A stretch of 40,771 bases of DNA from Escherichia phage BUCT789: the sequence record PQ999132.1; one strand, given 5' to 3'. Shown piece by piece: positions 364 through 39,754 of the stretch (positions within the stretch are counted from its first letter, which is position 1; the number at the start of each line of letters is the position of its first letter). The position numbers and the translations under genes were made by a program. The notes below the pieces were generated by a model, which worked only from the letters and a program-made list of their open reading frames with translations, ran no database searches and was not told the DNA's origin.

Positions 364-579
364 ATGCAACCATCTGAACTAGGCATCCGTGTAGAACAGC
401 GCCGTAAAGAACTCGGTATTTCTCAGCGCCGTCTGGCTGTCCTGACCGGCGTTTCCCAGGGTGCAATTAACCAGCTTGCACTCGGGGTAACGCGGGACGT
501 CCGCCCAGCAACGCTGTTTAAACTGGCGGAAGTGCTAGAGGTAGACGCCAAGTGGCTGGCGTTCGGTGAAGGGGCTTAA
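364..579 (+). CDS. XRE-family helix-turn-helix transcriptional regulator (Cro/CI-like)
   Basis: 71 aa; RBS AAGGAG; HTH signature LGISQRRLAVLTGVSQGAINQL; divergent from the leftward operon. Confidence 0.8.
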   Translation: MQPSELGIRVEQRRKELGISQRRLAVLTGVSQGAINQLALGVTRDVRPATLFKLAEVLEVDAKWLAFGEGA

Positions 580-2913: not shown

Positions 2914-3147
2914 TTATTCCAGGTCTTCTAAAGTAGCGGTCATTCCGCGAACTTCAGCAACAGCACTATATTTCCCGCCAACATTCTTCACGACACCGGA
3001 TTTAACCAGTACCTTCAACGACCCTTCAATAATGGCGGAACTATAGTACCTAAAATAACTACGGCGCAAGTCCATAACGCTGCACGACCCTTTTTTACGG
3101 GTTAATGAAACGACTGCCGTAAATACGCGGGACTGGAACTCGGTCAT
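2914..3147 (-). CDS. hypothetical protein (77 aa)
   Basis: ORF overlaps the upstream gene stop by 4 nt (coupled); C-terminus LEDLE. Confidence 0.55.
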   Translation of the reverse strand: MTEFQSRVFTAVVSLTRKKGSCSVMDLRRSYFRYYSSAIIEGSLKVLVKSGVVKNVGGKYSAVAEVRGMTATLEDLE

Positions 3148-3347
3148 TTTACATTCTCCTTAATCCACGCTTCCACTTTCTCCGGGTCGAAAGTACCCGG
3201 CTGCCGGCGGCCCATAATACGGATACAACAATCCGGGAACTTCCCACTCTTTAACCAGTTATTCAGCGTGCGACGGGTAACCCCGATACGCTCGGCTACT
3301 TCATTCTGTGTCATTCTCAAATCCCCATTATCAGTTAACGAAAACAA
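3144..3347 (-). CDS. AlpA/excisionase-like HTH DNA-binding protein
   Basis: Motif MTQNEVAERIGVTRRTLNNWLKSGKFP; start may instead be the internal ATG at 3314, which has a GGGGA RBS. Confidence 0.65.
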   Translation of the reverse strand: MFSLTDNGDLRMTQNEVAERIGVTRRTLNNWLKSGKFPDCCIRIMGRRQPGTFDPEKVEAWIKENVK

Positions 3348-3748
3348 GTATACATTGCGAATAATGGGAAATCAAACATAATCGCACCTATTGACATTAT
3401 GAAAATCTTCGTTTAAGGTGCTTCTGTATCTTAGTTACTTTGATTCTTGTTCACCTTGTAAAACCCGCCGAAAACGAGCGCCCAACGCGAAGTGTTAGGC
3501 GGCAGTTTACTGAACATTCGAATTATCGTAACTTTCCTTCCTAAGTATCTCCGGTTGCCCTGGGCAAGCTCTATTCTCATCGACGGCATATCTCTTAAGT
3601 ATCTGATTTTCTTAATGTGCCGTAGATTCGCAACCGTAAAAATGTAACGATTAGTGGGCAGGCTTAAGGCCTGCCCTTTAGTTACCAAGTAATAAGAATA
3701 AAGGCACAACCCTCACTAAAGAACCACAACGGCAACGTAACTTTTCTC

Positions 3749-5531: not shown

Positions 5532-5883
5532 CAATGACGCAGTAATCGAGTTCCTGTTTAACCAACTACAGCAGCAGCTAACGAACAACCCATACAAGCA
5601 ACAGTGTGAAGACCTGGCGCATGAGGTGCAGTCACTTAAGAATCAGTTACGCGATATGTCGGAGCTGGTGGATGCGCTACCGGGGACGATAACGTTAATG
5701 AACGGGAAATCTAGTTGCCGTAAAGAAGACGCGCAGGAATGCGAGCATGATTGGTTGCATAGTAAACACAAAAGCGGCTTCGTTTGCTTTAAGTGTGGGG
5801 CGCGCGAAGAGTGTGAACACGATTGGTACTTTTACGATAAAGGCGCGTCGATGATGTGCAAGAAATGCGGGCTGAAGAAATGA
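5524..5883 (+). CDS. zinc-ribbon protein with two CEHDW...CxKCG units
   Basis: 119 aa; ECEHDW...CFKCG and ECEHDW...CKKCG repeats; paralogous unit in 8369..8608. Confidence 0.65.
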   Translation: MSNNDAVIEFLFNQLQQQLTNNPYKQQCEDLAHEVQSLKNQLRDMSELVDALPGTITLMNGKSSCRKEDAQECEHDWLHSKHKSGFVCFKCGAREECEHDWYFYDKGASMMCKKCGLKK

Positions 5884-6083
5884 CCAGCATCCTCTTTATC
5901 TGGGTACTGTCCGCAGGCCAGATGCAACTGGCGGCAGCAGAAACGTTTTATTCGATGGAGGCGTGCCAGTCAGCGGCACGCGCCGCAGAGAACGCGCACT
6001 TCCTGTTTCAGGGCGACAAGCCCAACGATTCAGAGGTACGCGCTATCTGCTCACCTAAGCGACTTGGTAAACAGGAGAGATAA
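5880..6083 (+). CDS. small protein with N-terminal hydrophobic segment
   Basis: ATG 5880 overlaps upstream stop (ATGA); N-terminus MTSILFIWVLSAG. Confidence 0.5.
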   Translation: MTSILFIWVLSAGQMQLAAAETFYSMEACQSAARAAENAHFLFQGDKPNDSEVRAICSPKRLGKQER

Positions 6084-6376
6084 TGTCTCTTGCAACTGAC
6101 ATCCTGAAACGAAGCGGCCTTGCGCCGCTGTCACCGAGAGCGAAGACACGTATACACAAGCGTCGCCGTAACGTGCTGTACCCAGAGATACAAGAACGGC
6201 GTAAAGCTATCCGCGCCTGTGGATTCCAGAACGGAAAGGCCGTGAATCTCGGTGAGTTTAAAACACAGGAACGCGCAGCTATCGCTAATCGGCTATTTAA
6301 TTACTGGAAATCGCTGGGGTACGATGATATTCCGACGAAACCGCAGAGACGGCAATACATCTGGAGACACAAATAA
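6083..6376 (+). CDS. basic hypothetical protein (97 aa)
   Basis: ORF directly after the previous stop; K/R-rich. Confidence 0.55.
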   Translation: MSLATDILKRSGLAPLSPRAKTRIHKRRRNVLYPEIQERRKAIRACGFQNGKAVNLGEFKTQERAAIANRLFNYWKSLGYDDIPTKPQRRQYIWRHK

Positions 6377-6385
6377 ACCGTTATT

Positions 6386-6446
6386 AGGATAATTCCTACC
6401 CGTGGTATCCTCCAGTTACTGCATACTTAATACGCACCTGGAGGAT
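6386..6446 (+). promoter_or_regulatory. alternative RNA hairpins over the holin ribosome-binding site
   Basis: Perfect 9-bp inverted repeat atcctccag (6407-6415) / ctggaggat (6438-6446), the latter containing the holin SD; competing aggata (6386-6391) / tatcct (6406-6411) pairing. Confidence 0.45.
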
Positions 6447-6451
6447 TCATC

Positions 6452-6760
6452 TTGGATAAATTTACTGAAACAGTGACGGGCTGGCTTCTCGCTGCCGCAC
6501 TCGCCGGAGGGGTCATCGGACTACGACAACATAAGTCCGTTATTTCTGGCCCTATCGACGGCTTCTGCTTCATCGCTACTGGTTTCGCCTGCGCCGTATT
6601 TGGCGCCCCTCTTGCAGCTCAATGGTTCGGTATCACGGGCGACCGTGAAATCGCTGGCCTGGGCTTTATCATCGCTATTCTCTGGATGCCTATTTATTCC
6701 CGTCTCTCCGGTATTGTTGCCGGAGAATACATCTCACGTCGAGGAGGCCCGGATGAATGA
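6452..6760 (+). CDS. holin (class I-like, three predicted TMDs)
   Basis: TTG start 7 nt after GGAGGA; three hydrophobic segments; directly upstream of the endolysin. Confidence 0.65.
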   Translation: MDKFTETVTGWLLAAALAGGVIGLRQHKSVISGPIDGFCFIATGFACAVFGAPLAAQWFGITGDREIAGLGFIIAILWMPIYSRLSGIVAGEYISRRGGPDE

Positions 6761-7025
6761 GTTATTCTGGTTCGGCGGTATGCTGGCAATAGGGGGTACA
6801 TCGCTGTTTAATGTGTATCACCCCAGCGTTGACGATGGGCTATTTGGTCGTGTGCTCTATATCCTGACAGCTATCGTCTGCGCCGCCGGGTGTATCCACC
6901 TGTTACAGGGCAGCATGTCGCCCACGTTGCCTGAGACATTAATCACATTAGTTGCACTGCGCCAGATTCGCCAGGCGTGGCTGTCATATGGAGGACATAA
7001 GCGTGTCTCGAAACATTTCAGATAA
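6753..7025 (+). CDS. small membrane protein (second holin or antiholin candidate)
   Basis: ATG 6753 overlaps the holin stop (ATGAATGA); two hydrophobic segments; part of track ORF 6600..7025. Confidence 0.5.
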   Translation: MNELFWFGGMLAIGGTSLFNVYHPSVDDGLFGRVLYILTAIVCAAGCIHLLQGSMSPTLPETLITLVALRQIRQAWLSYGGHKRVSKHFR

Positions 7026-7488
7026 TGGATTGCATTTTACCGCTGCGTTCGAGGGATTCCGCGGAACTGCGTATCGTGCTACGCCTAACGAGAAGTACCT
7101 TACTATAGGCTACGGGCACTATGGGCCTGACGTAACCCCGGGTAAGACCATCACACCGGGACAGGGCTTGCTGTTACTGAATCGCGATATGGCTAAGGCT
7201 GTAGCTGCTGTTGACGCAGCAGCACACCATTCACTGACACAGGCACAGTTCGATGCAGTGTGCGACCTGGTATATAACGCAGGTGCTGGTGTGATTGGGG
7301 TTACTACCGGAACCGGTAAGGCGCTACATAGCGGTGATATTTCGACGCTGCGGGCTAAACTGGCGCTGTTCATCAACCAGAACGGCAAACCGTTACTCGG
7401 CCTGCGTCGCCGTACCGCAGGCCGCCTGGCGCTGTTCGATGGCAAGCCGTGGCAAGAGGCTGAGGCTATCGGGAGGGCTGTTAAATGA
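6988..7488 (+). CDS. endolysin, GH24 lysozyme-like muramidase
   Basis: FEGFRGTAYR...LTIGYGH matches the T4/lambda lysozyme catalytic region; no N-terminal signal-anchor. Confidence 0.8.
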   Translation: MEDISVSRNISDNGLHFTAAFEGFRGTAYRATPNEKYLTIGYGHYGPDVTPGKTITPGQGLLLLNRDMAKAVAAVDAAAHHSLTQAQFDAVCDLVYNAGAGVIGVTTGTGKALHSGDISTLRAKLALFINQNGKPLLGLRRRTAGRLALFDGKPWQEAEAIGRAVK

Positions 7489-7834: not shown

Positions 7835-7984
7835 ATGAAAATCACAGATATCGAAGCATTCAAAGACGCACAACTGATGGCACGTATCGCCGTTAGTAAC
7901 CTTAGTAGCAGTATCCCCGCTGACGCGTTCTGGTTCGCAGCGATGCAGACCCTGAAAGCAGCTTATGCAGGAGAGAAGAAATGA
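7835..7984 (+). CDS. small hypothetical protein (49 aa)
   Basis: ATG 7835 after GGAG; ends GEKK with GGAGAGAAGAAATGA junction into the next gene. Confidence 0.45.
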   Translation: MKITDIEAFKDAQLMARIAVSNLSSSIPADAFWFAAMQTLKAAYAGEKK

Positions 7985-8133
7985 GCGAACAAGGTCAGGT
8001 AAGCCAACCGTTACGAGTAGGCCGTAAAGTCAGTCACACCCCGTTCCCTACACGCGAGGAACTGATGAAACGTAACAGTTTCCCTGGGCCGGACAAGAAC
8101 AAGTATCTCAATCGCATGTGGGGAGAGAAGAAA
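7981..8133 (+). CDS. small hypothetical protein (50 aa)
   Basis: ATGA-coupled to neighbours; the same GGAGAGAAGAAATGA junction recurs at its 3' end. Confidence 0.45.
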
Positions 8134-8369
8134 TGACTGACCGTGAATACGAAAAGATGATGGTAGAGGCTGTTAACGGCGGCATAGACATCAGCCACGT
8201 GATGCACGTCCTGAATACTAAAATCGCTGTAGCGGAGCAAATGGTTGAGTCGCTTTATGAGACGCGCCGTGAACTGATTAACCGCTTCAACCTGAACAAA
8301 CCTGCTCCTACTAACGACGATTTTGATGGCGATTACAGAAATGGTGATTTTTATGAGGGAGCAGAATAA
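8130..8369 (+). CDS. acidic hypothetical protein
   Basis: ATG 8130; track ORF 8118..8369 starts at an upstream non-ATG codon. Confidence 0.55.
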   Translation, partial: EMTDREYEKMMVEAVNGGIDISHVMHVLNTKIAVAEQMVESLYETRRELINRFNLNKPAPTNDDFDGDYRNGDFYEGAE

Positions 8370-11612: not shown

Positions 11613-13106
11613 ATGGTTTCCGCAAACATTAACGCAGGGCAAGGGCAGAACGTTAAAACCCGCCACCGCCAGTACGAAGAGTATTTCCCTAAGTGGCAGA
11701 AGGTGCGACATGCGCTTTCTGGCGACCTGACATCGTATCTACGTGACGTCGGTAAGAATGAGCCGGACCCGGTTTACGGTCGCCAGCGTCAGGCTGAATA
11801 CGAAGCGGGGGCAATTTGCTACAACTTCACCAAGCGAACGCTTTCCGGCATGGTAGGCAGCGTAATGCGCAAAGACCCTGAGATGAATATTCCGTCTCAG
11901 ATGGAATACCTGACAACTAACTGCGATGGGTCTGGTGTCGGCCTGTGGCAGCACGCACAAGATACCCTGTATGAGATTGATGCCGTTGGTCGCGGTGGTT
12001 TGCTGGTGGACGCTCCCGCGGTAGAAGTCGCCACTATGGCGGAGCAAAACGAGGGCTTACTTAACCCGACAATCGCTTTCTACACCGCGGAGAACATCAT
12101 CAACTGGCGTCTTCAGCGCGTCGGTTCGGTCAATCGTGTGGTTATGGTCGTATTGCGCGAAGAATACGAGTACACCGACGGGACTGATGAGTTCAGCCCC
12201 AACTACGGCGAGCAATACCGCGTCCTTGATATTTTCGAAGGCCAGTATCGCCAGCGTCTGTACCGCTTTAACCAGAAAGGCGCACTGGTGGAAGGTGGCT
12301 ATATCGAAATATTCCCGAAACTCGGTAATATTCCGGTCGGGGTGATTCCGTTCACGTTCATCGGCGCGGGAAATAACGACTCAACCCCTGACGATGCCCC
12401 TTTGTTGCCGTTGGCTGAACTTAATATAGGGCACTTCCGTAACAGCGCAGACAATGAGGAGTCCAGCTTCGTTGTAGGCCAGCCAACTCTGTTCATCGCC
12501 CCTGGTGAGAACATGAGCATGGAGCAATGGAAAGAAGCTAACCCCCACGGCGTGCGCATGGGGTCGCGTTCGGGTCATAACATCGGCTACGGCGGCAATG
12601 CGTTTCTGGTCCAGGCAGGAGAGAACAACCTCGCCAAACAGAACATGCTGGATAAAGAGAACCAGGCAATCCAGATTGGTGCACAGCTTATTACCCCGAC
12701 GCAGCAAATCACCGCGGAATCGGCACGCCTGCAACGCGGCGCTGATACGTCTGTTATGGCAACAATCGCACGTAACGTAAGCATGGCGTATACCGATGCG
12801 CTGAAATGGGTTGCGGGGATGCTCGGACTTAGTGACGGTACTGAAATTGAGTTCAAACTGAATATGGAGTTCTTCCTGCAACCTATGACCGCCCAGGACC
12901 GCGCTCAGTGGATGGCGGATATTAACGCGGGCCTGTTACCGGCTACCGCTTACTATGCTGCGTTGCGTAAGGCGGGGGTAACTGACTGGACCGACGAGGA
13001 TATTCAGAATGCTATCGAAGATGCACCTCTGCCGTTAGGTGCTGCTTCTCAGGTAGCAGGAGAGATTCCGCAGTCGGCGCAGCAAAAAGACCCCACCCAG
13101 CAGTAA
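11613..13106 (+). CDS. portal protein
   Basis: 497 aa ORF directly after terminase and before the head morphogenesis gene. Confidence 0.8.
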   Translation: MVSANINAGQGQNVKTRHRQYEEYFPKWQKVRHALSGDLTSYLRDVGKNEPDPVYGRQRQAEYEAGAICYNFTKRTLSGMVGSVMRKDPEMNIPSQMEYLTTNCDGSGVGLWQHAQDTLYEIDAVGRGGLLVDAPAVEVATMAEQNEGLLNPTIAFYTAENIINWRLQRVGSVNRVVMVVLREEYEYTDGTDEFSPNYGEQYRVLDIFEGQYRQRLYRFNQKGALVEGGYIEIFPKLGNIPVGVIPFTFIGAGNNDSTPDDAPLLPLAELNIGHFRNSADNEESSFVVGQPTLFIAPGENMSMEQWKEANPHGVRMGSRSGHNIGYGGNAFLVQAGENNLAKQNMLDKENQAIQIGAQLITPTQQITAESARLQRGADTSVMATIARNVSMAYTDALKWVAGMLGLSDGTEIEFKLNMEFFLQPMTAQDRAQWMADINAGLLPATAYYAALRKAGVTDWTDEDIQNAIEDAPLPLGAASQVAGEIPQSAQQKDPTQQ

Positions 13107-13116
13107 GTTCACATAT

Positions 13117-13136
13117 AGCCCCGAAAGGGGCTTTCT
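13117..13136 (+). terminator. intra-operon hairpin (attenuator-like) after the portal gene
   Basis: gcccc-gaaa-ggggc followed by tttctt. Confidence 0.4.
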
Positions 13137-13142
13137 TATAGT

Positions 13143-14219
13143 ATGCTATTAACTTTAGCGCCACAGGGTTTATCTATGAGCTTACTTACATCACTAATCA
13201 GCCACCAGATATGGCTGCAACGCACCGCTTCCGGTGAGGTGAAAGACCTCGCGCCGTTCATTCAGGAAATGCGGGACGAAATCAAACGGCAGGTTCTGCT
13301 ATTCGGCGACGACGGGCGAAGCACTGCGCGACTGAATAGACTGTTACGCGACCTCGAAGAAGCACTGGCAGGACTTACAGGCGACTGGCAAACAAAGCTG
13401 ACAGAAGACCTTAAGGCGCTGGCGGCGTATGAGGCTGAGTGGAACGTAAAAACGCTGACGGCTAACGTTAACGCTGAATTTGTTACACCTACCGCCGAGC
13501 AGGTGTGGTCCGCTGCCGAGTTTCAGCCATTATCATTAAGTGATAAGCCGGTTGACTTCACTAAGCTGATGGATGGCTGGGGTGAAACAGAAGTATCGCG
13601 CCTGGTAACCGGCGTTAAGATGGGCTTTGTACAAGGCCAGACAACACGGCAGATTGTTAAGAATGTCGTTGGCGCTGGTGGGCTGGCGGACATCTCTGAG
13701 CGTAACGCGGCTACGGTAATCCGCACTGCGCTGTCTCACGTATCCAACGAAGCCCGTAACGAGACGTACCGCCAGAACGACGACATCATCGAGAAGTACG
13801 AGTGGGTGTCGACGCTGGACAGCCGTACCAGTACGATTTGCAGGGCCAGAGACGGAATGACGTGGGAAATCGGTAAAGGGCCAATGCCCCCCGCCCATCC
13901 GAACTGCCGGTCGTGTACGGCTCCGGTAATAAGTTCCGAGTTCGACTTCCTCGATAAAGGAGCGAAACGCGCGGCTAAGGGTGCAGAAGGAGGAACTCAG
14001 GTAAGCGCGGACACAACCTATTACGAGTTCCTCAGACAACAACCGGCGTGGTTTCAGGACCAGGCGCTCGGCCCTGTTCGCGGTAAGATTTTCCGTAACA
14101 GCGGTATATCGCCGGAAGAGTTTCGCGTAATATCTGTAGATGGTTTCGGGAATCCGCTCACGCTTAAGCAGATGGCGGAACTCGATAAACGTGTTGCTGA
14201 TTATCTGAAAGGGGATTAA
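13143..14219 (+). CDS. head morphogenesis protein (Mu F / SPP1 gp7-like minor head protein)
   Basis: 358 aa; conserved-looking region CRARDGMTWEIGKGPMPPAHPNCRSC; position after portal. Confidence 0.75.
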   Translation: MLLTLAPQGLSMSLLTSLISHQIWLQRTASGEVKDLAPFIQEMRDEIKRQVLLFGDDGRSTARLNRLLRDLEEALAGLTGDWQTKLTEDLKALAAYEAEWNVKTLTANVNAEFVTPTAEQVWSAAEFQPLSLSDKPVDFTKLMDGWGETEVSRLVTGVKMGFVQGQTTRQIVKNVVGAGGLADISERNAATVIRTALSHVSNEARNETYRQNDDIIEKYEWVSTLDSRTSTICRARDGMTWEIGKGPMPPAHPNCRSCTAPVISSEFDFLDKGAKRAAKGAEGGTQVSADTTYYEFLRQQPAWFQDQALGPVRGKIFRNSGISPEEFRVISVDGFGNPLTLKQMAELDKRVADYLKGD

Positions 14220-14680
14220 TGATGGGCTTTTTCAAAGTAACTGATGTACCTTCACGTCGCGTAGTCCAGTACGCCCGCGTGTCTGGCTCTGGTGAGAACG
14301 TGGTGTTTATTGATGATGAAAGTGTACTCGGTACACCCGTAGACGATATGCCGTTTGCAGATAAAACCGGTATTGCGTTACCCGCGGCGGGCATGCTTTA
14401 TGAAATTCCGTATCTGGCTGATGCTGGCGATGTGTATTTCTCGGTGCAACCGCAGGACGCTGAACTGGCAGACGGCAGCGCCACTATCACTGTCGAGGTT
14501 AAGGCGGGCAAAGCACCATACGCGCTGACCTGGTACAAAGACGGTAAGGAAGTGGTAAACGCCCCAGAAGAGGCTTTGTCTCTGACTGTTAATGCGGTGG
14601 GTGAATACTTCGTTAAAGTTACCGATGCCGATGGTGTAGAGGCGGTAAGCAAAGCGGCGAAGGTTAATAAGCCAGAATAA
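14219..14680 (+). CDS. hypothetical protein with Ig-like C-terminal region (possible capsid decoration)
   Basis: 153 aa; C-terminal TITVEVKAGKAPYALTWYKDGKEV...YFVKVTDADG; TAATG overlap with upstream gene. Confidence 0.55.
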   Translation: MMGFFKVTDVPSRRVVQYARVSGSGENVVFIDDESVLGTPVDDMPFADKTGIALPAAGMLYEIPYLADAGDVYFSVQPQDAELADGSATITVEVKAGKAPYALTWYKDGKEVVNAPEEALSLTVNAVGEYFVKVTDADGVEAVSKAAKVNKPE

Positions 14681-14686
14681 ACTGAA

Positions 14687-14705
14687 GCCCCGAAAGGGGC
14701 TTTTT
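14687..14705 (+). terminator. rho-independent terminator
   Basis: gcccc-gaaa-ggggc followed by ttttt. Confidence 0.65.
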
Positions 14706-14755
14706 AGCGCCTGCGATTATTCCAGTTATTCCACCGAATTGTAAATGTTGGAATA

Positions 14756-14771
14756 AACTATTCGAATAGTT
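14756..14771. promoter_or_regulatory. perfect 16-bp palindrome AACTATTCGAATAGTT overlapping a -35 element (operator candidate)
   Basis: Exact inverted repeat; shares the ACTATTC core found at the TACTAT promoters. Confidence 0.45.
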
Positions 14772-14798
14772 GACTTTTCACTGAAAATGTGCTAAGCT
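14770..14798 (+). promoter_or_regulatory. sigma70-like promoter, TTGACT-N17-TAAGCT
   Basis: TTGACT 14770-14775, 17-nt spacer, TAAGCT 14793-14798. Confidence 0.45.
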
Positions 14799-14804
14799 CC
14801 ACCT

Positions 14805-15005
14805 GAGCTTGTGAAGTATGAACAAGCGACCGCGGCGCGGGCAGGTAACGGAGCGGGACGTAAGTCCTGAGTGTAGTTACGCTGACGCGTTCGGAAGGGC
14901 CATACTCTATTGCTTGTGTAAAAAGTAACTGGTTTACTGAGATTACGCCGTTTCTATGTTTAAATGATAAGGACTAGCGCCCCGCTTTATGGCGGGGCTT
15001 TACTT
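14805..15005 (+). ncRNA. candidate non-coding RNA (about 200 nt) between promoter and terminator
   Basis: Only a 36-codon ORF without convincing RBS; GC-rich self-complementary stretches; ends in terminator hairpin 14979-15005. Confidence 0.3.
14979..15005 (+). terminator. terminator-like hairpin
   Basis: gccccgc-tttatg-gcggggc followed by tttactt. Confidence 0.45.
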
Positions 15006-15022
15006 ATCGAGAAAGGAGAAAC

Positions 15023-15409
15023 ATGAATCTTAAAGCAACTGTCGTAGCAGGAGCATGTTTCATCATCCTGTTATACACGCACGGCTACTATCAATACCGC
15101 AGCGGCTGGAACGGAGGCAGGGCTAATCTAGTTTCGCAGCAACAGCAGAAAGCACAGGCTGAGTTAGCGAAGAAAACACAACGGCAGCAGCAGGACGAAT
15201 CAAAGGCCGCCGCCGCTGACAGCGAAGGCAAGACGAAATCAGAGGTGATTACCCGTGAAGTCGTTAAGTACATTAAAACGCCTGGCCGCAGCGTGTGCAC
15301 TTTCGACGATGCTCGCGTCCTGCTCAAGTCCCGCGCCGTCGCAAACGCCAATTCCATCCCCGGATACGACGATGATGCAGCCGCCATGCAAACTGGCCGC
15401 GCCAAGTAG
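15023..15409 (+). CDS. Rz: Rz-like i-spanin
   Basis: 128 aa; AAGGAG RBS; N-terminal TMD then Q/A/K-rich coiled-coil region; contains the Rz1 gene in the +1 frame. Confidence 0.75.
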   Translation: MNLKATVVAGACFIILLYTHGYYQYRSGWNGGRANLVSQQQQKAQAELAKKTQRQQQDESKAAAADSEGKTKSEVITREVVKYIKTPGRSVCTFDDARVLLKSRAVANANSIPGYDDDAAAMQTGRAK

Positions 15410-15518
15410 CGATGCCGATGAGGATTTAGCCATTGACGTTCAGAACACAGAATGTGTACGGCAACTGCGTCTGAAAGTGTTCATGTTGCAGGATTACGTG
15501 AGGAATATTCTGGAATAG
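15255..15518 (+). CDS. Rz1: Rz1-like o-spanin (outer-membrane lipoprotein)
   Basis: GTG start with GAGGTGA RBS; signal peptide with lipobox LASC; Pro-rich mature part; begins inside Rz and extends past its stop. Confidence 0.7.
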   Translation: MKSLSTLKRLAAACALSTMLASCSSPAPSQTPIPSPDTTMMQPPCKLAAPSSDADEDLAIDVQNTECVRQLRLKVFMLQDYVRNILE

Positions 15519-15597
15519 TTGCCTTGTATGTTGGAATAATTTATTCTTGACATGTAAATCCGGGTGGCCCGGATTCCAACGTCCAGGGGACATACTG

Positions 15598-16224
15598 ATG
15601 AGCGAAGAAGTGAAAGACGAAACTATCGAACAACAAGAGACTAAGACCACGTTTACCAAAGAAGAAGTTGACGCGCTGGTATCCGGTCTTAAAGCTAACA
15701 ACGAGAAACTCTTGTCTGAAAAGAAAGCTGCTGCCGCTGCCGCTAAAGAAGCCGCAGATGCGAAGCTGAAAGCCGAACAGGAACGCGCAAAACAGAACGG
15801 CGAACTTGAGGCATTCGAGAAAACGTTGCGCAGTCAGTATGAGCCAGTACTCGCCGAGAAAGACGGTAAGATTAGCAAAATGGCTGAGCGTATCCTCGGC
15901 GCAGAACGTAAATCAGTTATCAGCCAGTTGTCTGGCATGTTGATTGATGAGAGCGCAGCGGATATCATCGCTATGATGGTCAAGACCGAATTTGACGGCG
16001 ATGACGTTGTGACCAAGTTCACAGGTGCAGACGGTAATGTCATCACCACCGACGCAGAGCAATTTAAAAAGTATCTGCGTGAGCACAAAGCATTTTCGCA
16101 TCTGATTAAAGCAGATGCAGCAACCGGCGGCGGGGCTTCCGGTAACAAAAATTCTACTGGCGGGGCCGGTGGTGCGGACGTAATCCAGCAAAAACTTAAC
16201 GCCAAATACGGCAAACGAGGGTAA
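15598..16224 (+). CDS. scaffolding protein (putative)
   Basis: ATG 15598; A/K/E-rich coiled-coil sequence; directly upstream of the major capsid gene. Confidence 0.6.
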   Translation: MSEEVKDETIEQQETKTTFTKEEVDALVSGLKANNEKLLSEKKAAAAAAKEAADAKLKAEQERAKQNGELEAFEKTLRSQYEPVLAEKDGKISKMAERILGAERKSVISQLSGMLIDESAADIIAMMVKTEFDGDDVVTKFTGADGNVITTDAEQFKKYLREHKAFSHLIKADAATGGGASGNKNSTGGAGGADVIQQKLNAKYGKRG

Positions 16225-16230
16225 CAGAAT

Positions 16231-17199
16231 ATGTCTCTGTCAGATATGAAGGTTTATAACGACGACATCGTCGGTACCACTATTGAACTGCTTGGCCAGA
16301 AAACTGACCAGTTTAACGCAGCCTCCGGTGGTGCAATTGTACTGTCTACCGCTTCATGGCGCGGTGACTTCTCCCGTGAGTCTTTCTTTAACCAGATTGC
16401 CTCCGCTAAACGCCGCGTTGACCGTTACGCCGCTATCGCGTCTCAGGCAGCTACCGCGCTGACTCAGGGCGAGCATGTAGGCGTTAAAGTCGCTGGCGGC
16501 TTCGGACCGGTACTGTTCGAGCCTGCGCAAATGACCTGGCTTAACGAAGACCCGGCAAGCGCGATTCGTGCTATTTCCGAAGGCTTCTCTGACGCACTGT
16601 TAGCGGACCAGCTCAACACCGCTGTTGGCGCAGCTGTTGCGGCGGTATCTGGTCAGGCCGCGCTGGTTAACGACGTATCTGCAACCGTGGGTCTGTCCCT
16701 GAACGTGCTGAACAACAGCCACGCTAAATTCGGCGACCAGTCTCAGCTGCTGATTGCCGACATCATGACTGGTGCTGCTTATCACACGCTGGTAGATAAA
16801 GCGCTGACTAACGCAAACCAGCTGTTCGTTGCTGGTAACGTTATGGTTGTCGATGTTCTCGGCAAGCGTTACGTAATCTCTGACATTCCTGCGCTGTACG
16901 AGGCCGGTACTCCGAACAAGACTAAGGTCCTATCCGTAGTTGCAAACGGCATCATCGTTGACAATGCTTCTGACATTATCAGCAACATTGACACCAGCAA
17001 CGGTAACACCCGCATTCAGACCACTTGGCAAGCGGATTACAGCTTCGGCCTGAAACTGAAAGGCTATAGCTGGGATGTTGCCAACGGCGGTAAATCTCCA
17101 CTGGACGCAGAACTGTTCACCGCGACCAACTGGGACAAAGCTGTTGCTGAGAACAAACACACCCTCGGTACTCTGGCAATCGCCGACGCGGACAAGTAA
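16231..17199 (+). CDS. major capsid protein
   Basis: 322 aa; follows scaffold; followed by a strong terminator hairpin. Confidence 0.8.
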   Translation: MSLSDMKVYNDDIVGTTIELLGQKTDQFNAASGGAIVLSTASWRGDFSRESFFNQIASAKRRVDRYAAIASQAATALTQGEHVGVKVAGGFGPVLFEPAQMTWLNEDPASAIRAISEGFSDALLADQLNTAVGAAVAAVSGQAALVNDVSATVGLSLNVLNNSHAKFGDQSQLLIADIMTGAAYHTLVDKALTNANQLFVAGNVMVVDVLGKRYVISDIPALYEAGTPNKTKVLSVVANGIIVDNASDIISNIDTSNGNTRIQTTWQADYSFGLKLKGYSWDVANGGKSPLDAELFTATNWDKAVAENKHTLGTLAIADADK

Positions 17200-17220
17200 T
17201 ACGGTTGGAGTAAAAACAAA

Positions 17221-17240
17221 GGGGCTACGGCCCCTTTTTA
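17221..17240 (+). terminator. rho-independent terminator after the major capsid gene
   Basis: ggggc-tacg-gcccc followed by ttttt. Confidence 0.65.
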
Positions 17241-17256
17241 CTAGGAGAAATTAAAG

Positions 17257-23778: not shown

Positions 23779-26080
23779 TACGGCTTCCCTAATTGCCAGA
23801 GTAAAAACAGAAGGCGCTGATGTAGCCGCTAAACAGCTTGACGCTATGGCGGCATCCGCAGACCGTGCGGACACATCCGTAAACAAACTAACGCCGGATG
23901 TTAATAAAGTAAACTCCGCTACGTCTAAAGCGGCTTCTGACGGTTTCGCTAAATTCCGTAACGCCGCCGGGCAGGTAGGCTTCCAGGTGCAGGACATGGT
24001 CGTCCAGTTGCAGTCCGGCACGTCTGCATTCGTAGCAATCGGGCAACAAGGCTCTCAGCTTGCGGGTGCTTTCGGCCCTGGTGGCGCGGTGCTTGGGGCT
24101 GTAATTGCTCTCGCATCAGCAATTGGCGGTGTCCTGTATAAATCACTAACGGAGGCCGAAGGTAGCTCAAAAGACCTCGAGGCCGCGCAAAAGCAGTTAA
24201 AAGACACCTTCCAACAAACGGCATCCGGCTCTCTCGAACTGACAGACGGCCTTATCCAGCTTACCCAAATAAGCCGAGAAGCGGCGGAGACTCAACTTGC
24301 TTTGGCTAAGGCTAACGCAGACCTTATCGCGCAGCAAACAGCTAAAGCCGTTCGTGAGGACGCAGAGTCGTGGGAGACGTGGAAAGCCTCCACGGCATCA
24401 GCTATCAGCCAGTACGATGCATTGGTCTCTAAAGGTGCGGATGTAGGCGACACGTTAGAAAAACTCGGTGGCACTTACGAGGGTAACATCGTAGGCGTCA
24501 ACATGCTGGCGCAGAATATCGCAGAGCTTAGCAGTAAGTTTGGGGTTAACCGTGACCAGGCGCTGGAGATGATAGCGGCGCAGAGTGCGTTTAACAAAGA
24601 GCCAACCGCCGAGAATGCCCGTCGCATCGCCGATGTGTTTACCGACTGGCTCGGTAATACAAAACAGTTGAACCCGGAACTTATCCGCCTGACCGACAAT
24701 GCCAACAAGAACGCCACGGCACTGGAGAACGCGGAGAAGTCCGCAAACGCGGCGGCGGAGGCCCAAAAGAATCTTGGTCGTAACGTCAACTCAACAACGC
24801 AGAGATTCCAGGAACAGAACGAAGCTATCGTCAAAAACCAGCAAATCGCTATCTTAAGTGACCGCGAGCGTATCCGTGCGCAAGCTGAACTGGATAAGCA
24901 GGCGTTCGCTAAACGTGAAGCTGTCACCAAAGAACAGATCGCCGCGTATAATGCTGCGCGTGACACGGAAGCACAACAAGACATCGCTCGCATCGACGCT
25001 ACCGAAAAAGCGAAGGCCGACCGCGAGGCCAAATCGAACGAGAAACGGCTGGCGGCACAAGCCAAACGCGAAGAAACGGCGGCTGAACGACAGAAAAAAG
25101 CGGCGGAAGATTTCCTGGCTACTGTCGACCGCACAACCGGAGATGAGATTTCGCGCATTACCGCTGCGGAAGAGCAGAAACTGGCAAAACTGGAAGAGTT
25201 TAACAGAGCTGGGACTATAAGCCAGCAGCAATACGAAAACGCCAGGACGCAGATTATGCTCTCGGCCGAACAGGCCCGCCAGGAAGAACTCGCCAAGCGA
25301 GAGAAAGAACGACAGGAGAAGAACCAGAAAGGCGAAGACTTCATGGCTCAGATTATGGGCCAAAACGCCGCTGAGCTTGAGCTTCTGGAGATTCAGGAGC
25401 AACAAAAACTGGACGTTGCTGACAGGTATCGCGAACAGAATCTGATTAACGAAGAACAGTACCAGGCCGCGGTTAATGCTATAAATGACCAGTACGCGTT
25501 AAAACGTGCTAACGCAACGGGTAACGCTTTTGGCATGATGGCGGATAATATTAAATCGTCGCTTGGCGAAGCGTCTACTGCGTACAAAGCTTTCGCTATT
25601 GCGCAGGCCACTATTGCCACATACACCTCCGCTATAGAGGCTTATAAATCTGCATCGGCTATCCCTATTGTTGGATGGGTGCTCGGGCCTGTAGCCGCCG
25701 CCGCCGCCGTAGCCGCGGGGCTCGCAAACATTGGCAAAATTCGTTCGGCCCGTGAGCAGGGCGGTAACTTAGCTGCAGGTCAGTTATCTACTATCGCGGA
25801 ACGTAACAAGCCAGAAGTTATTATGCCTGCAGGGGCGTCACGCGTCCGTACCGCAGAACAGATGCGCCAGATTATGGGCGAGAACGGCAACAAGTCAGGC
25901 GGTGACAGCGTTACAATCGTCAACAACACCACCGGACGTGTTGATTCCGCCGTTACAGAGCGTGACGACGAAGGGCGGTTACGTGTTATCATCAGCGAAA
26001 CAGTATCGGCGGCGTTACAAGACAGCAACAGTGCAATCTCTAAGTCACGCCGTGCTACACGAAACCAGCCGGGGTATTAA
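23756..26080 (+). CDS. tail tape-measure protein
   Basis: 774 aa; long A/E/K/Q-rich coiled-coil; Gly/Ala-rich hydrophobic segment near C-terminus. Confidence 0.85.
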   Translation: MRAEKMADTASLIARVKTEGADVAAKQLDAMAASADRADTSVNKLTPDVNKVNSATSKAASDGFAKFRNAAGQVGFQVQDMVVQLQSGTSAFVAIGQQGSQLAGAFGPGGAVLGAVIALASAIGGVLYKSLTEAEGSSKDLEAAQKQLKDTFQQTASGSLELTDGLIQLTQISREAAETQLALAKANADLIAQQTAKAVREDAESWETWKASTASAISQYDALVSKGADVGDTLEKLGGTYEGNIVGVNMLAQNIAELSSKFGVNRDQALEMIAAQSAFNKEPTAENARRIADVFTDWLGNTKQLNPELIRLTDNANKNATALENAEKSANAAAEAQKNLGRNVNSTTQRFQEQNEAIVKNQQIAILSDRERIRAQAELDKQAFAKREAVTKEQIAAYNAARDTEAQQDIARIDATEKAKADREAKSNEKRLAAQAKREETAAERQKKAAEDFLATVDRTTGDEISRITAAEEQKLAKLEEFNRAGTISQQQYENARTQIMLSAEQARQEELAKREKERQEKNQKGEDFMAQIMGQNAAELELLEIQEQQKLDVADRYREQNLINEEQYQAAVNAINDQYALKRANATGNAFGMMADNIKSSLGEASTAYKAFAIAQATIATYTSAIEAYKSASAIPIVGWVLGPVAAAAAVAAGLANIGKIRSAREQGGNLAAGQLSTIAERNKPEVIMPAGASRVRTAEQMRQIMGENGNKSGGDSVTIVNNTTGRVDSAVTERDDEGRLRVIISETVSAALQDSNSAISKSRRATRNQPGY

Positions 26081-26083
26081 CCA

Positions 26084-27475
26084 ATGAGTGATTTGAGATT
26101 CCCTATGTCCCTTCGACCTATAGTGTCGAAGGGGTACTCCCAGACCAGGGGGAGTAATATCTGGCGCACCGAGGTTCAGGGTGGCTTACCCCGCCAGGGG
26201 CGAGACACGTACTTCGAACCGGTGCCGATTAGCGTGACGCTCGTCGTATCGTCTCTCGGTCGTCAGGCGTTTTATAGCTTCCTGAACAACATCGACGGCG
26301 GGGCGTCCTCGTTTATCATGCCCCATGATACGGGTATGGGCATCGAGGACCACCAGGTGCTCATCACCTCTACGATTAGTGACAGCACCGACGACGGTAA
26401 GAACTGGGTAATCTCGTTCACAGCAACAGCAGAACGCACAGCGATTCAGGAAGACACATGTCTTACGAAGAATCTGCCAGATTTGTTCGGTTGCTACGGC
26501 GATTATTTAGGTAGTTTTCTGAAAATATACGCGAACTACGAGACGACGTTCCCGCGCATCTGGAGCAATGAAGGGCCCGCAGGGTACCCGCCGATTAACC
26601 TTCTGGCGTCAACTCTCGATAGCCGCATTGTGTACGACGGACCGCAGGTTTATTACATCAACCGCAATGGCAATCTTGTGCAGTCCGCCGCGGGTGAATG
26701 GCCTCTTACGTTTATTGATGGGGTTGCTGTCGGGCGTGTTCCGCCGGAGTTGATGGGGGCGAATAGTGTTCTCTATTCTAGCGATATCATATCTTCTCTT
26801 TGGGTAAAAGTACGGACTGGCATAACGCTTGCTCCGGGTTACCTGACGTCTGACAATACCTTCAAATTAACACCAACCATCGTAAACGGGGCGCATTACA
26901 TACAACAAAGTATAGAGGGAGAGTTTGGTGAAGATGAATTTTACACGTTCAGTTGTTTTGCCAAATCTGACGGTTACAAATACGCAAGACTACGCGCGGC
27001 TGATGGCGCCGGTTTCATATCTGACGTCGTAGTTAATTTGGAAACTGGAGACATCTATTCCGGGCAACAGAATAGCCTAGTAACATATATCGGTGGTGGG
27101 TGGTTCAGATTTACGGAACTGATTGTCGTGCGTGGAAACGGGGCAAATAAGCTAGATATCACCATTGGGGTTAATGATAATTCAACCCAACTAACGTATC
27201 CCGGCGACGGTTCAAGTGGGATACTCGTATCATCACCTCAAATAGAAAAATCAGAATTTGCCACTTCGCCAATAGTAACCGATGCGTCACCGGTAACCAG
27301 GCACTCGGCATCGGCAAAAGTAACCATGAACGGCGCGACAAGCATCGACATTACCTATTCCGACGGCACTGTAGTAAACGTTCCATCTGTAGATGATTAC
27401 GCGACTATCCCCCAAGCGGATTCTGCGTGGGGTAGTAAATATATCACCCGTATTGATTTTAATGTGGACGGTTAA
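26084..27475 (+). CDS. minor/distal tail protein
   Basis: 463 aa ORF directly after tape measure. Confidence 0.6.
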   Translation: MSDLRFPMSLRPIVSKGYSQTRGSNIWRTEVQGGLPRQGRDTYFEPVPISVTLVVSSLGRQAFYSFLNNIDGGASSFIMPHDTGMGIEDHQVLITSTISDSTDDGKNWVISFTATAERTAIQEDTCLTKNLPDLFGCYGDYLGSFLKIYANYETTFPRIWSNEGPAGYPPINLLASTLDSRIVYDGPQVYYINRNGNLVQSAAGEWPLTFIDGVAVGRVPPELMGANSVLYSSDIISSLWVKVRTGITLAPGYLTSDNTFKLTPTIVNGAHYIQQSIEGEFGEDEFYTFSCFAKSDGYKYARLRAADGAGFISDVVVNLETGDIYSGQQNSLVTYIGGGWFRFTELIVVRGNGANKLDITIGVNDNSTQLTYPGDGSSGILVSSPQIEKSEFATSPIVTDASPVTRHSASAKVTMNGATSIDITYSDGTVVNVPSVDDYATIPQADSAWGSKYITRIDFNVDG

Positions 27476-27478
27476 CTT

Positions 27479-27994
27479 ATGAGTCAGGAATCAGTAGAAG
27501 CAGCCTATCGCCGTAAGCTGGCCTCAAATCCCGACGGCGAGATGGACTACATCACGTTGCAAATCAGCCACCCGTCGCTGTCAAAGACGTACTATCTTGT
27601 GCGTGGGACTTCCGACCTGACGGCAACGCTAGAGACAGGAGAAGTCGTAACGTTTGAGGCTACACCTATGGAGGCTAAAGGGGCCGCCAACAATAACGAC
27701 ATGGACCAGCGGGCGTCGTTCGCATTGCCTGACATTGGTAACCAGTTAGACGACGAGATGGACAGGATACCGCCTGATAATACCGTGCTACCTAAATTTA
27801 TATTCCGCCGTTTTGTTAGTACTGATTTGTCTTATCCGGCTGATGGGCCAGTTGTATACGAGTTGCAGTCGATAAACCAGGAAAAGGGGATATTCACAGC
27901 TGACGTCGGCGTCCCTATGTTGAACCAAAGAGCCACCGGTGAACTAATGACCCCTTCGGTAATCCCATTGTTGCGTGGTGTTTTGTCTACATGA
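27479..27994 (+). CDS. minor tail protein (lambda L-like position)
   Basis: 171 aa; position in the tail-tip gene series. Confidence 0.5.
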   Translation: MSQESVEAAYRRKLASNPDGEMDYITLQISHPSLSKTYYLVRGTSDLTATLETGEVVTFEATPMEAKGAANNNDMDQRASFALPDIGNQLDDEMDRIPPDNTVLPKFIFRRFVSTDLSYPADGPVVYELQSINQEKGIFTADVGVPMLNQRATGELMTPSVIPLLRGVLST

Positions 27995-28356
27995 ATATTA
28001 ATTCTTATACTGGGTTGCCGTACGATTTTCGCCGTCGTAATTGCTGGCACCACGTGCGTAACGTTCGTACCGACGCTGGTCTTTTTACGCCAGAGTTTAA
28101 CGTCGCTTCACCAACACAGATTAACGACGCCTTCGAAGAAGGCCATAAAGACACTAAAGGCCTCGTACGCGTAGAAACTCCGCAAAACTTCGATGCCGTG
28201 TTGATGGCGACACGGCACAGAAACCGTGTAATCTGGCACGCTGGAGTATACTATGACGGTATGGTAAGCCATTGCGAGCTGGCGAGTCGCCAGGTACGGT
28301 TAGACCGACTGGAAGACTTGCGCGAAACTTATGCGGAGATAGAATTTTGGCGCTGA
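27991..28356 (+). CDS. tail assembly protein (lambda K-like position, possible NlpC/P60-type)
   Basis: 121 aa; Cys/His-containing NCWHH segment; ATGA-coupled. Confidence 0.45.
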   Translation: MNINSYTGLPYDFRRRNCWHHVRNVRTDAGLFTPEFNVASPTQINDAFEEGHKDTKGLVRVETPQNFDAVLMATRHRNRVIWHAGVYYDGMVSHCELASRQVRLDRLEDLRETYAEIEFWR

Positions 28357-30899: not shown

Positions 30900-30911
30900 A
30901 GAGGACTCTAT

Positions 30912-37731: not shown

Positions 37732-37751
37732 TATTTTGACCCTTAGTAAAA

Positions 37752-38512: not shown

Positions 38513-39754
38513 TTATTCTAAATCTTCTTCACTAACCTGATTCCACCCAGGCCGTTTGTCGTCTGCCGTTGCGACACATGGTGCGCCGGGCTTACGGGTA
38601 ATGAAGTCTTTCAGTTCTTCCTCCGGTATTACTTTAACCGCTTCGGCCGGCGTCATAAGAACTACCTTTTGCAGCATAGTGCCGTACTTCTCAAATACTG
38701 CATCGGTATCTTTCCACGCACGATTACCAGGACGACCTTCAACCAGCTTATACCCCGGCACTTTCTTACCGGAATGCAAAGCGGCTGCCATAGCTTTCTC
38801 AACCTTGTCGATGTGCTGGCGCAACAACGGCAACTTCTCGTACTCAGCTACGAGTTGCTCTGGTGTCAGTTCCAGTGCAAAGTCGCCCTCCAGTTCTTCC
38901 GCCAGTACCGAGTTAACGGTTTTTGTACGCGTGGCGCACTGTTCCGAGAACCGACACCACTGACATCCATCGACCGACGGCCTGAAGTCCGACGCTTTCA
39001 GGTTCTTTTTACCACGGAAATACGCATCAAGCGCCAACAGAGCTCGTTTCTGCGCGAACTTAGCGAACAGTTCCAGACCCTCGACCGAGATGTCCCATTC
39101 CGAAGCACCCCCGGCGTACGGCTGGAAAATAACCAGACGAACAACTGTGATGTTATAACGTCTCTTGAGTCGTCGATAAACACCGAGAGCGTAAAGCATA
39201 AGCTGCTTGTTTTCTTTCGCTTCAACACGATGTCGTCCTGTTTTAAGGTCGCCGATAATGAGCATGTGCTCGTCGGTGTTAACCAGTTCCTGTACGGCAA
39301 CAAGGTCGGCGGTTCCGAACGTCTCGACACCTTCATAACCTGGATGCAATACCTCAGTAAGATTGACGCGCATTTCCAGCTTGGCGTAAGTAGCTACGTC
39401 GATAATCGGTTTGCTGTAGTCGGTGTACTTGCGCACCTGCTCAATCATGTCGGCCGTAATCAGTACCGCCCCTTTCATCGGGCTGATTAGCGCCTTAATC
39501 TGGCCTTTACCCTCATCCAGCACATAAGCACCGACTTCGCGCTCTAACGGCAACGCAGTTCCGCGAATATAAGCGTTGAGATGTACCTCAGCTATGGTGT
39601 GGCACGCAGTACCTGTAACAGCCGCTTTACCTGACGTGTTAGGAATATCTTTTTCACAGGCCAGTGACGCCGCGCAGCTTAGCCACTTTTTAGCTCCCGA
39701 CGGTGACAGTAAGGCGTGTACATCGTTATTTCCGCCGCGTTCTTTTAGTTTCAT
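38513..39754 (-). CDS. Cas4/RecB-like PD-(D/E)XK exonuclease with Fe-S cysteines (DUF2800-like)
   Basis: N-terminal Cys plus C-terminal CQWCRFSEQC; IGDLKTGR...EAK nuclease core; ends SEEDLE; start ATG 39754 (track lists 39775). Confidence 0.7.
   Translation of the reverse strand: MKLKERGGNNDVHALLSPSGAKKWLSCAASLACEKDIPNTSGKAAVTGTACHTIAEVHLNAYIRGTALPLEREVGAYVLDEGKGQIKALISPMKGAVLITADMIEQVRKYTDYSKPIIDVATYAKLEMRVNLTEVLHPGYEGVETFGTADLVAVQELVNTDEHMLIIGDLKTGRHRVEAKENKQLMLYALGVYRRLKRRYNITVVRLVIFQPYAGGASEWDISVEGLELFAKFAQKRALLALDAYFRGKKNLKASDFRPSVDGCQWCRFSEQCATRTKTVNSVLAEELEGDFALELTPEQLVAEYEKLPLLRQHIDKVEKAMAAALHSGKKVPGYKLVEGRPGNRAWKDTDAVFEKYGTMLQKVVLMTPAEAVKVIPEEELKDFITRKPGAPCVATADDKRPGWNQVSEEDLE

Follow-up and report, generated by a model that had tools for sequence, protein, structure and literature searches.

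A structured leader RNA between a predicted promoter and the spanin genes of Kagunavirus phages

What is the non-coding interval that lies directly ahead of the spanin genes of Escherichia phage BUCT789? In the genome of this phage (sequence record PQ999132.1; the whole stretch of 40,771 nucleotides (nt) was analysed and is called the window here), an earlier note made from the sequence alone had singled out positions 14740-15010. It described a promoter overlapped by a perfect palindrome and, further downstream, a candidate non-coding RNA of about 200 nt. We show that the interval consists of a predicted sigma-70 promoter and a structured non-coding 5' leader of ~200 nt that belongs to the spanin unit of Kagunavirus. 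The Guernseyvirinae (Kagunavirus, Jerseyvirus and Cornellvirus) are often isolated for therapy and biocontrol directed at E. coli K1 and Salmonella, and their transcription programme is essentially unstudied.

Covariation and anatomy of the leader RNA

The BUCT789 window represents a Kagunavirus (Guernseyvirinae). Relatives were gathered via their spanin and capsid proteins, by DNA patterns and from annotated records, and the collected loci were given L-numbers (L050 is phage Shashou and L211 is phage Shemara). The region is matched at 95-99% identity by 180 deposited phage genomes, all of them Guernseyvirinae, which comprise Escherichia Kagunavirus (K1G, K1ind1-3, Shashou and others) and 65 Salmonella phages. 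The interval was found to fall into five lineages: the K type, which is the lineage of the window itself; a variant of L027 type (L027 and L231; 83% identity); the J type of Jerseyvirus (269 records); the M type (Cornellvirus SP-031, phiEap-2 and others); and the N type (Shemara, SE1 and TS6). The element is present in ~450 deposited genomes (180 records of the K type and 269 of the J type), to which the M type is added.

A structure with the helices P1, P2a-d, P3, P4a/b, P5 and P6 was proposed for the RNA at 14805-15005 on the + strand (~201 nt; RNA position 1 is window position 14805), and a covariance model, R1, was built from it, which gives this RNA a score of 259 bits. For a full-length test, 35 distinct sequences of the K, L027 and J types were aligned to R1. 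In this alignment, which is fitted to the model and favours the structure, 98.7% of the cells form standard pairs. Both sides changed in 18 of the 50 pairs, as against 9.3 ± 1.6 in shuffles, none of which (0 of 500) reached 18, and the covariation score of 0.205 compares with 0.010-0.028 when the 3' partners were slid by 1-3 columns. RNAalifold, run on an unfitted MAFFT alignment of K-type sequences, independently recovered P2, P3, P4b and P6. When the 5' domain was considered alone and the diverged copies from early operons (see below) were included, 97.7% of the cells were paired, 16 of 28 pairs had changed on both sides, and the covariation score was 0.408 versus at most 0.056 in the slid controls. 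The + strand has a folding energy of -68.6 kcal/mol and many G-U pairs, and the - strand has a folding energy of -48.5 kcal/mol; because of the G-U pairs and this difference of 20 kcal/mol, the + strand is taken to be the transcribed one. The single-sequence folding z-score is modest (-1.9). The element at 14805-15005 (+) is a real structured non-coding RNA, and the covariance analysis against related phages, which the earlier note had named as a check, revealed strong covariation.

The first ~108 nt of the RNA fold as two stem-loops, helix P1 and the P2-P3 element, beginning 2 nt from the predicted start. Helix P1 (RNA 3-8 with 18-23; 14807-14827, +), in which four of six pairs change on both sides, is separated by a linker of two unpaired nucleotides (RNA 24-25) from helix P2, a long irregular stem (RNA 26-45 with 72-90, +) that is capped by P3 (RNA 51-55 with 60-64, +) with its GUAA loop. 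The P2-P3 stem-loop (14830-14894, +) shows two-sided changes in 12 of its 22 pairs. The P3 loop differs among types (GUAA, UCACAA, AUUA and UCC) and is of GNRA type in several lineages. The motif CGGAAGG (RNA 88-94; 14892-14898, +) does not vary among the K, J and M types or in the majority of the early copies; the early copy of Shashou has UGGGAGG instead. It is followed by a variable linker without conservation (RNA ~95-104) and by a conserved AUUG (RNA 105-108).

The 3' part of the RNA begins with the P4 hairpin (RNA 109-137; 14913-14941, +; pairs 109-111/135-137 and 120-124/130-134), which is less well supported, its changes being largely one-sided. The conserved and unpaired stretch AUUACGCC (RNA 138-145) leads to the P5 hairpin (RNA 146-170; 14950-14974, +), which has the conserved loop GUUUAAAUG. 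The last element, P6, is the terminator-like hairpin that had been noted ahead of the Rz ribosome-binding site (RBS). This hairpin, GCCCCGC/GCGGGGC, occupies RNA 175-194 (14979-14998, +, with its tail to 15005) and is followed by UUUACUU (TTTACTT in the DNA). It has eight pairs, seven of which are G-C, and shows compensatory changes from CG to GC, AU and UA. With its tail it lies 17 nt ahead of the i-spanin start, and the Shine-Dalgarno sequence of the spanin gene lies 13 nt beyond it. The U tract after this last hairpin is good only in the K type; in the J type it reads UUAGCGU, and in the M and N types UGUUACG. Accordingly, the homologues do not share the 3'-terminal intrinsic terminator with U-rich tail that is expected of small RNAs (sRNAs) of Hfq type.

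The K and J types have in common the blocks ACCGCGGYGCGG, GRAGCGGG, AGYGUA, CGCRUUCGGAAGGGCC, AUUGCUU, AGAUU(A)CGCCGU and AUGUUUA, while the stems between these blocks differ by compensatory changes. A pseudoknot between GRAGC and GCUU is possible; the nucleotides concerned are invariant, so covariation is silent on it. Two other pairings were rejected: the RNAalifold helix between RNA 1-16 and 99-113, which is broken by variation at 98-104 and absent in the J type, and the pairing of CGCC (142-145) with GGCG (30-33) from the single-sequence fold, which is broken by the variants L003, L010 and L027. A direct repeat is present within RNA 3-9 and 108-114 (14807-14813 and 14912-14918), with GCUUGUG occurring twice in the K type and GCUUUCAG twice in the J type. 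Both repeat copies could pair with the 3' arm of helix P1, which hints at alternative folds.

Across the 33 K-type loci compared, no part of the surrounding 5.4 kb varies less than the leader RNA. Its nucleotide diversity is 0.028-0.043, while the values are 0.06-0.11 for the spanin genes, 0.10-0.145 for the Hoc-like gene and 0.13-0.27 for the scaffold and capsid genes. Where the spanin protein has only 64-70% identity, the RNA still has 98%. No match to Rfam was found at gathering thresholds for the whole window, and a search of 14650-15650 with E-values up to 10 returned only chance-level hits (E of at least 1.3). Similarly, a scan of the window for tRNA and tmRNA found none, and nothing similar to 14740-15022 was returned when 5,426 E. 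coli genomes were searched with blastn. The literature searched on Guernseyvirinae, Jerseyvirinae, Kagunavirus and RNA yielded no account of the element; the sole Kagunavirus transcriptome paper found there contains gene-level data only. The leader represents a new RNA family, so far without an Rfam entry, of a known general kind, the promoter-proximal leader RNA.

The pattern AGATT(N)CGCCGT...ATGTTTA retrieved known phages and chance matches in coding regions from viral contigs, and mostly more K-type copies from metagenomes. With nhmmer and R1, the RNA was not found in capsid-related, more distant phages. R1 does not detect the M and N types either, and the kinship of these two types is based only on position, promoter architecture and motifs.

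The only + strand open reading frame (ORF) of at least 25 amino acids inside the interval has 36 codons (14818-14928, +). It is annotated as a hypothetical protein in the GenBank records of Shashou, fKuEco01 and others, and it is intact in most of the near-identical K-type sequences, which would be expected of a genuine small protein gene. However, one-nucleotide indels shift its frame or cut it to 9-17 codons in L003, L013, L014, L016, L020 and L005, L027 has lost the start, both L010 and L034 have lost the stop, and the J type, with its homologous RNA, has no such ORF. All substitutions in the intact copies alter an amino acid, and the indels and substitutions in this region follow base pairing rather than the reading frame. 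There is, moreover, no credible RBS. Since frame, start and stop are not preserved among the relatives, the ORF is not a gene, as the earlier note had suspected from the lack of a convincing RBS, and we give next to no credence to a small protein. Annotations should replace it by a non-coding RNA or leader feature.

Predicted promoters and operator-like repeats at the two flanks of the unit

The predicted promoter P1 (14770-14798, +) was described correctly in the earlier note as TTGACT-N17-TAAGCT, with the -35 element at 14770-14775 and the -10 element at 14793-14798; the extended -10 (TGc, with TG at 14790-14791) had gone unremarked. The transcription start of promoter P1 is predicted from TTGACT-N17-TGcTAAGCT. 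The architecture is invariant, as all of the 65 distinct promoter variants keep GGAATA-N3/4-TATTC, the -35 element, the 17-nt spacer, the TG and the sequence TA[ACG][CG]CT.

The perfect 16-bp palindrome AACTATTCGAATAGTT (14756-14771) does overlap the -35 element as had been reported, and it is the sole perfect palindrome of this length in the window. Nevertheless, it is no rarer than chance: composition-matched first-order Markov sequences contain 0.755 such palindromes on average, and 52% of them contain at least one. Because random sequence commonly yields one, AACTATTCGAATAGTT is not significant by itself. It is also specific to the K lineage, being perfect in most K-type relatives, broken in L006, L007, L016, L027, L217, L231 and L235, and absent from the J and M types. 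What is conserved is GGAATA-N3-TATTC together with TTATTCC repeats. In BUCT789 the former is GGAATA-AAC-TATTC (14750-14763, centred at about -48), a half-site pair that is found in every lineage at a fixed distance from the -35 element of promoter P1. The pattern GAATA-N3-TATTC (at most one mismatch) occurs seven times in the window versus 1.12 expected, and none of 100 shuffles reached seven. Two direct repeats of TTATTCC, 9 bp apart (14717-14723 and 14726-14732, +) and kept in the K, J and M types, form the distal part of an operator-like array. On this left flank, GGAATA/TATTCC half-sites are thus located at 14717, 14726 and 14750 as well as in AACTATTCGAATAGTT.

Half-site clusters are present on both flanks of the RNA-spanin unit. 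The right-hand array (15502-15546), before the scaffold gene, contains two GGAATA half-sites, at 15502 and 15512, followed by the palindrome GGAATAATTTATTC (15533-15546), which covers the spacer and the -10 element of a second predicted promoter. This promoter P2 of the scaffold and capsid genes (15519-15547, +) consists of TTGCCT (15519-15524), N17 and TATTCT (15542-15547), a pair that is kept in K, J and Shemara. In Shemara, a terminator and a convergent gene immediately precede this position, so that the scaffold and capsid genes need a promoter here. The earlier note had seen here a related palindrome, GAATAATTTATTC (15534-15546), abutting TTGACA (15547-15552); both are present, but TTGACA is not conserved and the promoter pair is TTGCCT/TATTCT. 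As a -35 element TTGACA was rejected, there being no usable -10 element 16-18 nt downstream and the hexamer being TTGTTA in the J type. At the predicted 5' end of the promoter P2 transcript lies a conserved hairpin, AATCCGGG/CCCGGATT (15557-15575, +), with a compensatory change to CACCGGG/CCCGGTG in the J type. The stretch 15519-15575 is a second diversity minimum (0.042), as low as the leader RNA.

The arrays look like operators of a phage regulator. Because the copies of the leader module at early operons (see below) are without GGAATA/TTATTCC arrays, which are found only at the late copy and the scaffold promoter, the arrays appear to be a mark of late promoters. Different repeats, ACTCGCAA, are present in the same slot of the more distant phages L117 and L118, which fits phage-specific regulators. 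When the half-sites were compared with the boxes of ArgR, RcsB, Lrp and CpxR, spacings or matches were unconvincing, and no claim is made. TTATTCC/GGAATA arrays also occur beyond the Guernseyvirinae, in L194, L196, L200, L201, L206 and L208 (contigs of 48-53 kb) and in L189 and L199. In contigs of T1-like appearance a small gene is preceded by one form of array, the double inverted pair TTATTCCTGTTATTCC-N8-GGAATAGATGGAATAA; another form adjoins three TGTGGATAA repeats, which resemble DnaA boxes, and an AT-rich stretch. No small regulator common to BUCT789 and the T1-like contigs with TTATTCC arrays was found, those loci being fragments only. Within the left flank, a promoter-like site on the minus strand (14745-14716; TTTACA, 18 nt, AATAAT, preceded by TG; 10 of 12 matches) aims into the bidirectional terminator at 14685-14702.

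A second copy at the early operon and the possible role of the leader

R1 finds a second, diverged copy of the element (55-78 bits) in Shashou (37537-37706), L068 (11757-11917, - strand), L093 (12189-12349, - strand) and L244 (699-859). These copies share the promoter TTGACT-N17-TGnTAAGCT and the same P1-P2-P3 succession up to AUUG, and their 3' continuation is unrelated. They display further compensatory changes, with P3 becoming GUGCC/GGCAC and pair 32:85 becoming A-U. The second copy heads the early rightward operon, divergent from a helix-turn-helix (HTH) gene. In Shashou it is followed by a terminator-like hairpin (37716-37732) before the first gene, and another terminator (38617-38638) lies inside the operon. 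A blastn search with the early copy matched 234 places in the 180 records, and ~54 genomes (~30% of the K-type relatives) have both copies. The core promoter and the 5' domain together are thus a portable module. In the Shashou record, the minus-strand ORF CPT_Shashou_056 (37530-37637) overlaps the early copy on the opposite strand.

In the BUCT789 window, R1 detects the late copy only. The early leader of this phage (3391-3800) is a non-coding stretch of ~400 nt with the promoter TTGACA-N17-TAAGGT and a different 5' part. The first early gene (3803) is again preceded by a terminator-like hairpin, at 3656-3676. Similarity to the early leader of Shashou is limited to the distal ~80 nt, and this leader may be another type of leader RNA.

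The reading that we favour, at a rough probability of 0.4, is that the leader RNA contains a cis-acting 5' domain that makes RNA polymerase pass terminators. The nascent 5' domain would act in cis on the transcribing polymerase, either alone, like the put RNA of phage HK022, or with a phage or host factor, like nut and qut. Polymerases started at promoter P1 would then pass P6 and the strong terminators beyond it, including the one after the capsid gene, while polymerases without this modification would stop and leave an RNA of ~200 nt. The GGAATA/TTATTCC arrays would be the operators at which a phage DNA-binding protein sets the timing of the late-copy and scaffold promoters. More speculatively, transcripts from promoter P2, which are without the domain, might stop after the capsid gene and so give the high capsid-to-tail ratio needed by such phages.

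Strong terminators are placed along the rightward gene train at 13117-13132, 14685-14702 and 17218-17237, and terminator-like hairpins follow both copies of the module. The intrinsic terminator at 17218-17237, AAAGGGGCTACGGCCCCTTTTT followed by TTTTT, is situated directly after the major capsid gene, and the next gene begins 19 nt later at 17256; since the terminator precedes this gene start, the head-completion and tail genes downstream probably depend on read-through. Searches for a protein antiterminator were negative: PHROGs scans of 20 small ORFs identified holins, an endolysin and two HTH proteins, encoded at 364-579 (+) and 3144-3347 (-), but nothing resembling N or Q, and the annotation of Shashou lists no antiterminator. 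Many small proteins are without an assigned function.

The closest functional parallel that we can offer is HK022 put, which consists of two RNAs of ~70 nt, each with two stem-loops, just downstream of PL and PR that act without a protein, putL beginning at transcript position 2-3 (PMC9378689). The leader element likewise starts within 2-3 nt of the predicted transcript start, forms two stem-loops parted by 1-2 unpaired nucleotides just downstream of a promoter, and has terminators downstream and no recognisable N or Q protein in its genome. Paralogous copies at two promoters per genome are found in ~54 of the 180 relatives, whereas BUCT789 has a single copy. The leader domain is nevertheless longer than put (~88-108 nt versus ~70 nt) with a much longer second stem, and it belongs to a virulent siphophage instead of a lambdoid phage. 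Antitermination and the dependence on the zinc-binding domain of the beta' subunit are properties of put; here terminators downstream are what is seen. The put sites are not annotated in the HK022 record, so the comparison was made as an R1 scan and not as a direct alignment: with filters off, R1 gave at most 3.6 bits (E >1) on HK022 24000-32000, the immunity region with putL and putR.

Lambda nut (boxA/boxB) with N is similar in that a promoter-proximal RNA signal is present at two operons, and the GNRA-type P3 loop of several lineages is also reminiscent of it. It differs in that no boxA-like sequence was seen by eye, the P3 loop varies by type and no N-like protein was identified. At the lambda PR' promoter, a sigma-70 promoter drives a transcript of ~200 nt, the 6S RNA, which ends at the intrinsic terminator tR' upstream of the lysis genes and is extended by Q antitermination. 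The order found here is comparable: promoter P1 with operator-like DNA repeats, the RNA at 14805-15005, P6 with its U tract, and the spanin genes from 15023 heading a late operon. In contrast to lambda, no Q homologue was found among the 20 small ORFs scanned, only the spanin genes lie downstream while holin and endolysin are encoded elsewhere, and a conserved -10-like pause element was not found in the first 25 nt; AAGTAT at RNA 10-15 fits NANNAT in the K type but is lost in L027, the early copies and the J type. The leader RNA also carries strong covariation, which lambda 6S RNA is not known to do, and is thus itself under selection.

Several points weigh against a role in antitermination. 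We infer the transcript start, its 3' end and the read-through of terminators alike. Helix P1 may be shortened in the J and M types, where the predicted start lies within its 5' arm or immediately ahead of it. The last hairpin may not terminate at all where its U tract is poor (J, M and N types), leaving nothing to antiterminate, and an alternative (antiterminator) pairing conserved between the K and J types was looked for by inspection without success. Promoter P2 could supply scaffold and capsid transcripts without any read-through. Because the early leader of BUCT789 lacks the 5' domain, the module is not indispensable at early operons; and any likeness to put is one of functional analogy and not of homology, given the negative R1 scan of the HK022 immunity region.

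Among the alternatives, the leader could be a free-standing, trans-acting sRNA that is released at P6 or by processing in the A/U-rich linker and acts by pairing with mRNAs of the host or phage or by sequestering a protein, for instance a host defence or RNA-binding protein, the spanins being expressed only by leakage. The K-type promoter with a G+C-rich hairpin and UUUACUU does resemble a small-RNA gene, the conservation is very high even in loops and linkers (CGGAAGG, AGAUUACGCC and the P5 loop GUUUA), and the short PR'-tR' transcripts of Stx phages, which act as the regulatory sRNA StxS, provide a precedent. Yet the U tracts of the J, M and N types are poor, so release by termination is not a common feature and, in part at least, the RNA is the 5' leader of the spanin mRNA instead of being obligatorily released. 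The early copies share the 5' domain only and run on into long leaders, no target was identified and there is no similarity to E. coli genomes. The ~200-nt non-coding RNA proposed in the earlier note is sustained by covariation, G-U pairs and a conservation above that of the flanking genes, but with the poor U tracts and the recurrence of its 5' domain at the start of a different operon, it is probably not simply a free-standing sRNA, and we regard this explanation as unlikely. A riboswitch-like or protein-sensing attenuator, in which a metabolite, second messenger or phage or host protein bound by the 5' domain would decide on termination at the leader hairpin or on the start of spanin translation, appears distinctly unlikely. 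It would account for the succession of promoter, conserved folded domain with covarying stems, terminator-like hairpin and RBS, for the many invariant nucleotides in internal loops and linkers between the stems, and for the GNRA loop of P3 in several lineages. On the other hand, no Rfam family was matched even at E up to 10, and neither a ligand nor a conserved, mutually exclusive pairing of the domain with P6 was found; the U tract is poor in most lineages, the downstream genes (spanins and early genes of unknown function) are of no metabolic class, and the 5' domain is 110-300 nt away from the nearest start codon.

That the leader is only a 5' untranslated region for mRNA stability or processing (protection against RNase E or 5'-end decay, or RNase III sites) seems very unlikely to us. 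The transcripts from promoters P1 and P2 are both predicted to open with a hairpin at most ~3 nt from the start, and P6 could protect a 3' end after cleavage, but a simple 5' hairpin would suffice for this, which leaves unexplained a two-stem domain of ~88 nt with invariant loops, its better conservation than that of its neighbours and its reuse with the promoter at another operon. It is highly improbable that the interval has merely a DNA-level function or reflects recent recombination (a mosaic joint or hot spot) without any RNA function. RNA and spanin types are indeed reassorted in L035, L036, L037 and L049, and insertions cluster at both borders of the unit; neither the double compensatory changes (18 of 50 pairs) nor the strand specificity of the G-U pairs would be expected on these grounds.

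Returning to the cis-acting 5' domain that would carry polymerase past terminators, a wider claim would be that it represents a previously unrecognised class of processive antiterminators, made of RNA only or of RNA plus a host factor, in virulent enterobacterial siphophages. The module would then be a portable promoter and antiterminator cassette, placed by the phages ahead of whichever operon must cross several terminators, and a second, independently evolved solution of put type. We consider this claim doubtful. Processive antitermination by RNA is known from very few systems, and if the leader RNA modifies RNA polymerase it would add a new, easily testable example from E. coli phages, along with a compact promoter-plus-leader part for synthetic biology.

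Genome setting and neighbouring loci

In BUCT789 the portal gene (11613-13106), the MuF-like head morphogenesis gene (13143-14219) and the Hoc-like/Ig gene (14219-14680) precede the interval. The last of these is ended by the intrinsic terminator at 14685-14702, which is bidirectional (either strand), is annotated as a terminator in Shashou and shields the spanin unit from upstream transcription. Downstream of the leader follow the i-spanin gene (15023-15409, +; RBS and ATG within 15012-15025) and the o-spanin gene (15255-15518, +), which overlaps it. In the relatives compared, spanin genes are always directly downstream of the leader RNA. The scaffold gene ends at 16224 and is followed by the major capsid protein gene (16231-17199). 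The holin and endolysin genes are away from the spanin genes, at 6452-7488.

The capsid allele of BUCT789 (16231-17199) is not the one carried by most Kagunaviruses, the blastn coverage of 13143-17199 ends at query position 3007 in most relatives, and the closest protein relatives of the capsid include environmental contigs (55-93% identity). Together, these observations point to a mosaic joint near the scaffold-capsid boundary. Insertion hot spots were seen at both borders of the RNA-spanin unit, at window positions 14703 and 15518-15530, and in many relatives the space from the upstream terminator to the TTATTCC repeats holds additional genes. In Shemara, minus-strand genes are found at both borders (5670-6803 and 7914-8231), with a GGAATA array beside each insertion.

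In other capsid-related phages, unrelated long non-coding regions occupy the same slot upstream of the spanin genes. The types seen in this slot are those of L112 and L114 (~2000-2260), L108, L186, L187, L188, L117 and L118; they are a type rich in GGGAG/CUCCC, the N type with a nested hairpin capped by GUAA, and the operator-repeat type with ACTCGCAA.

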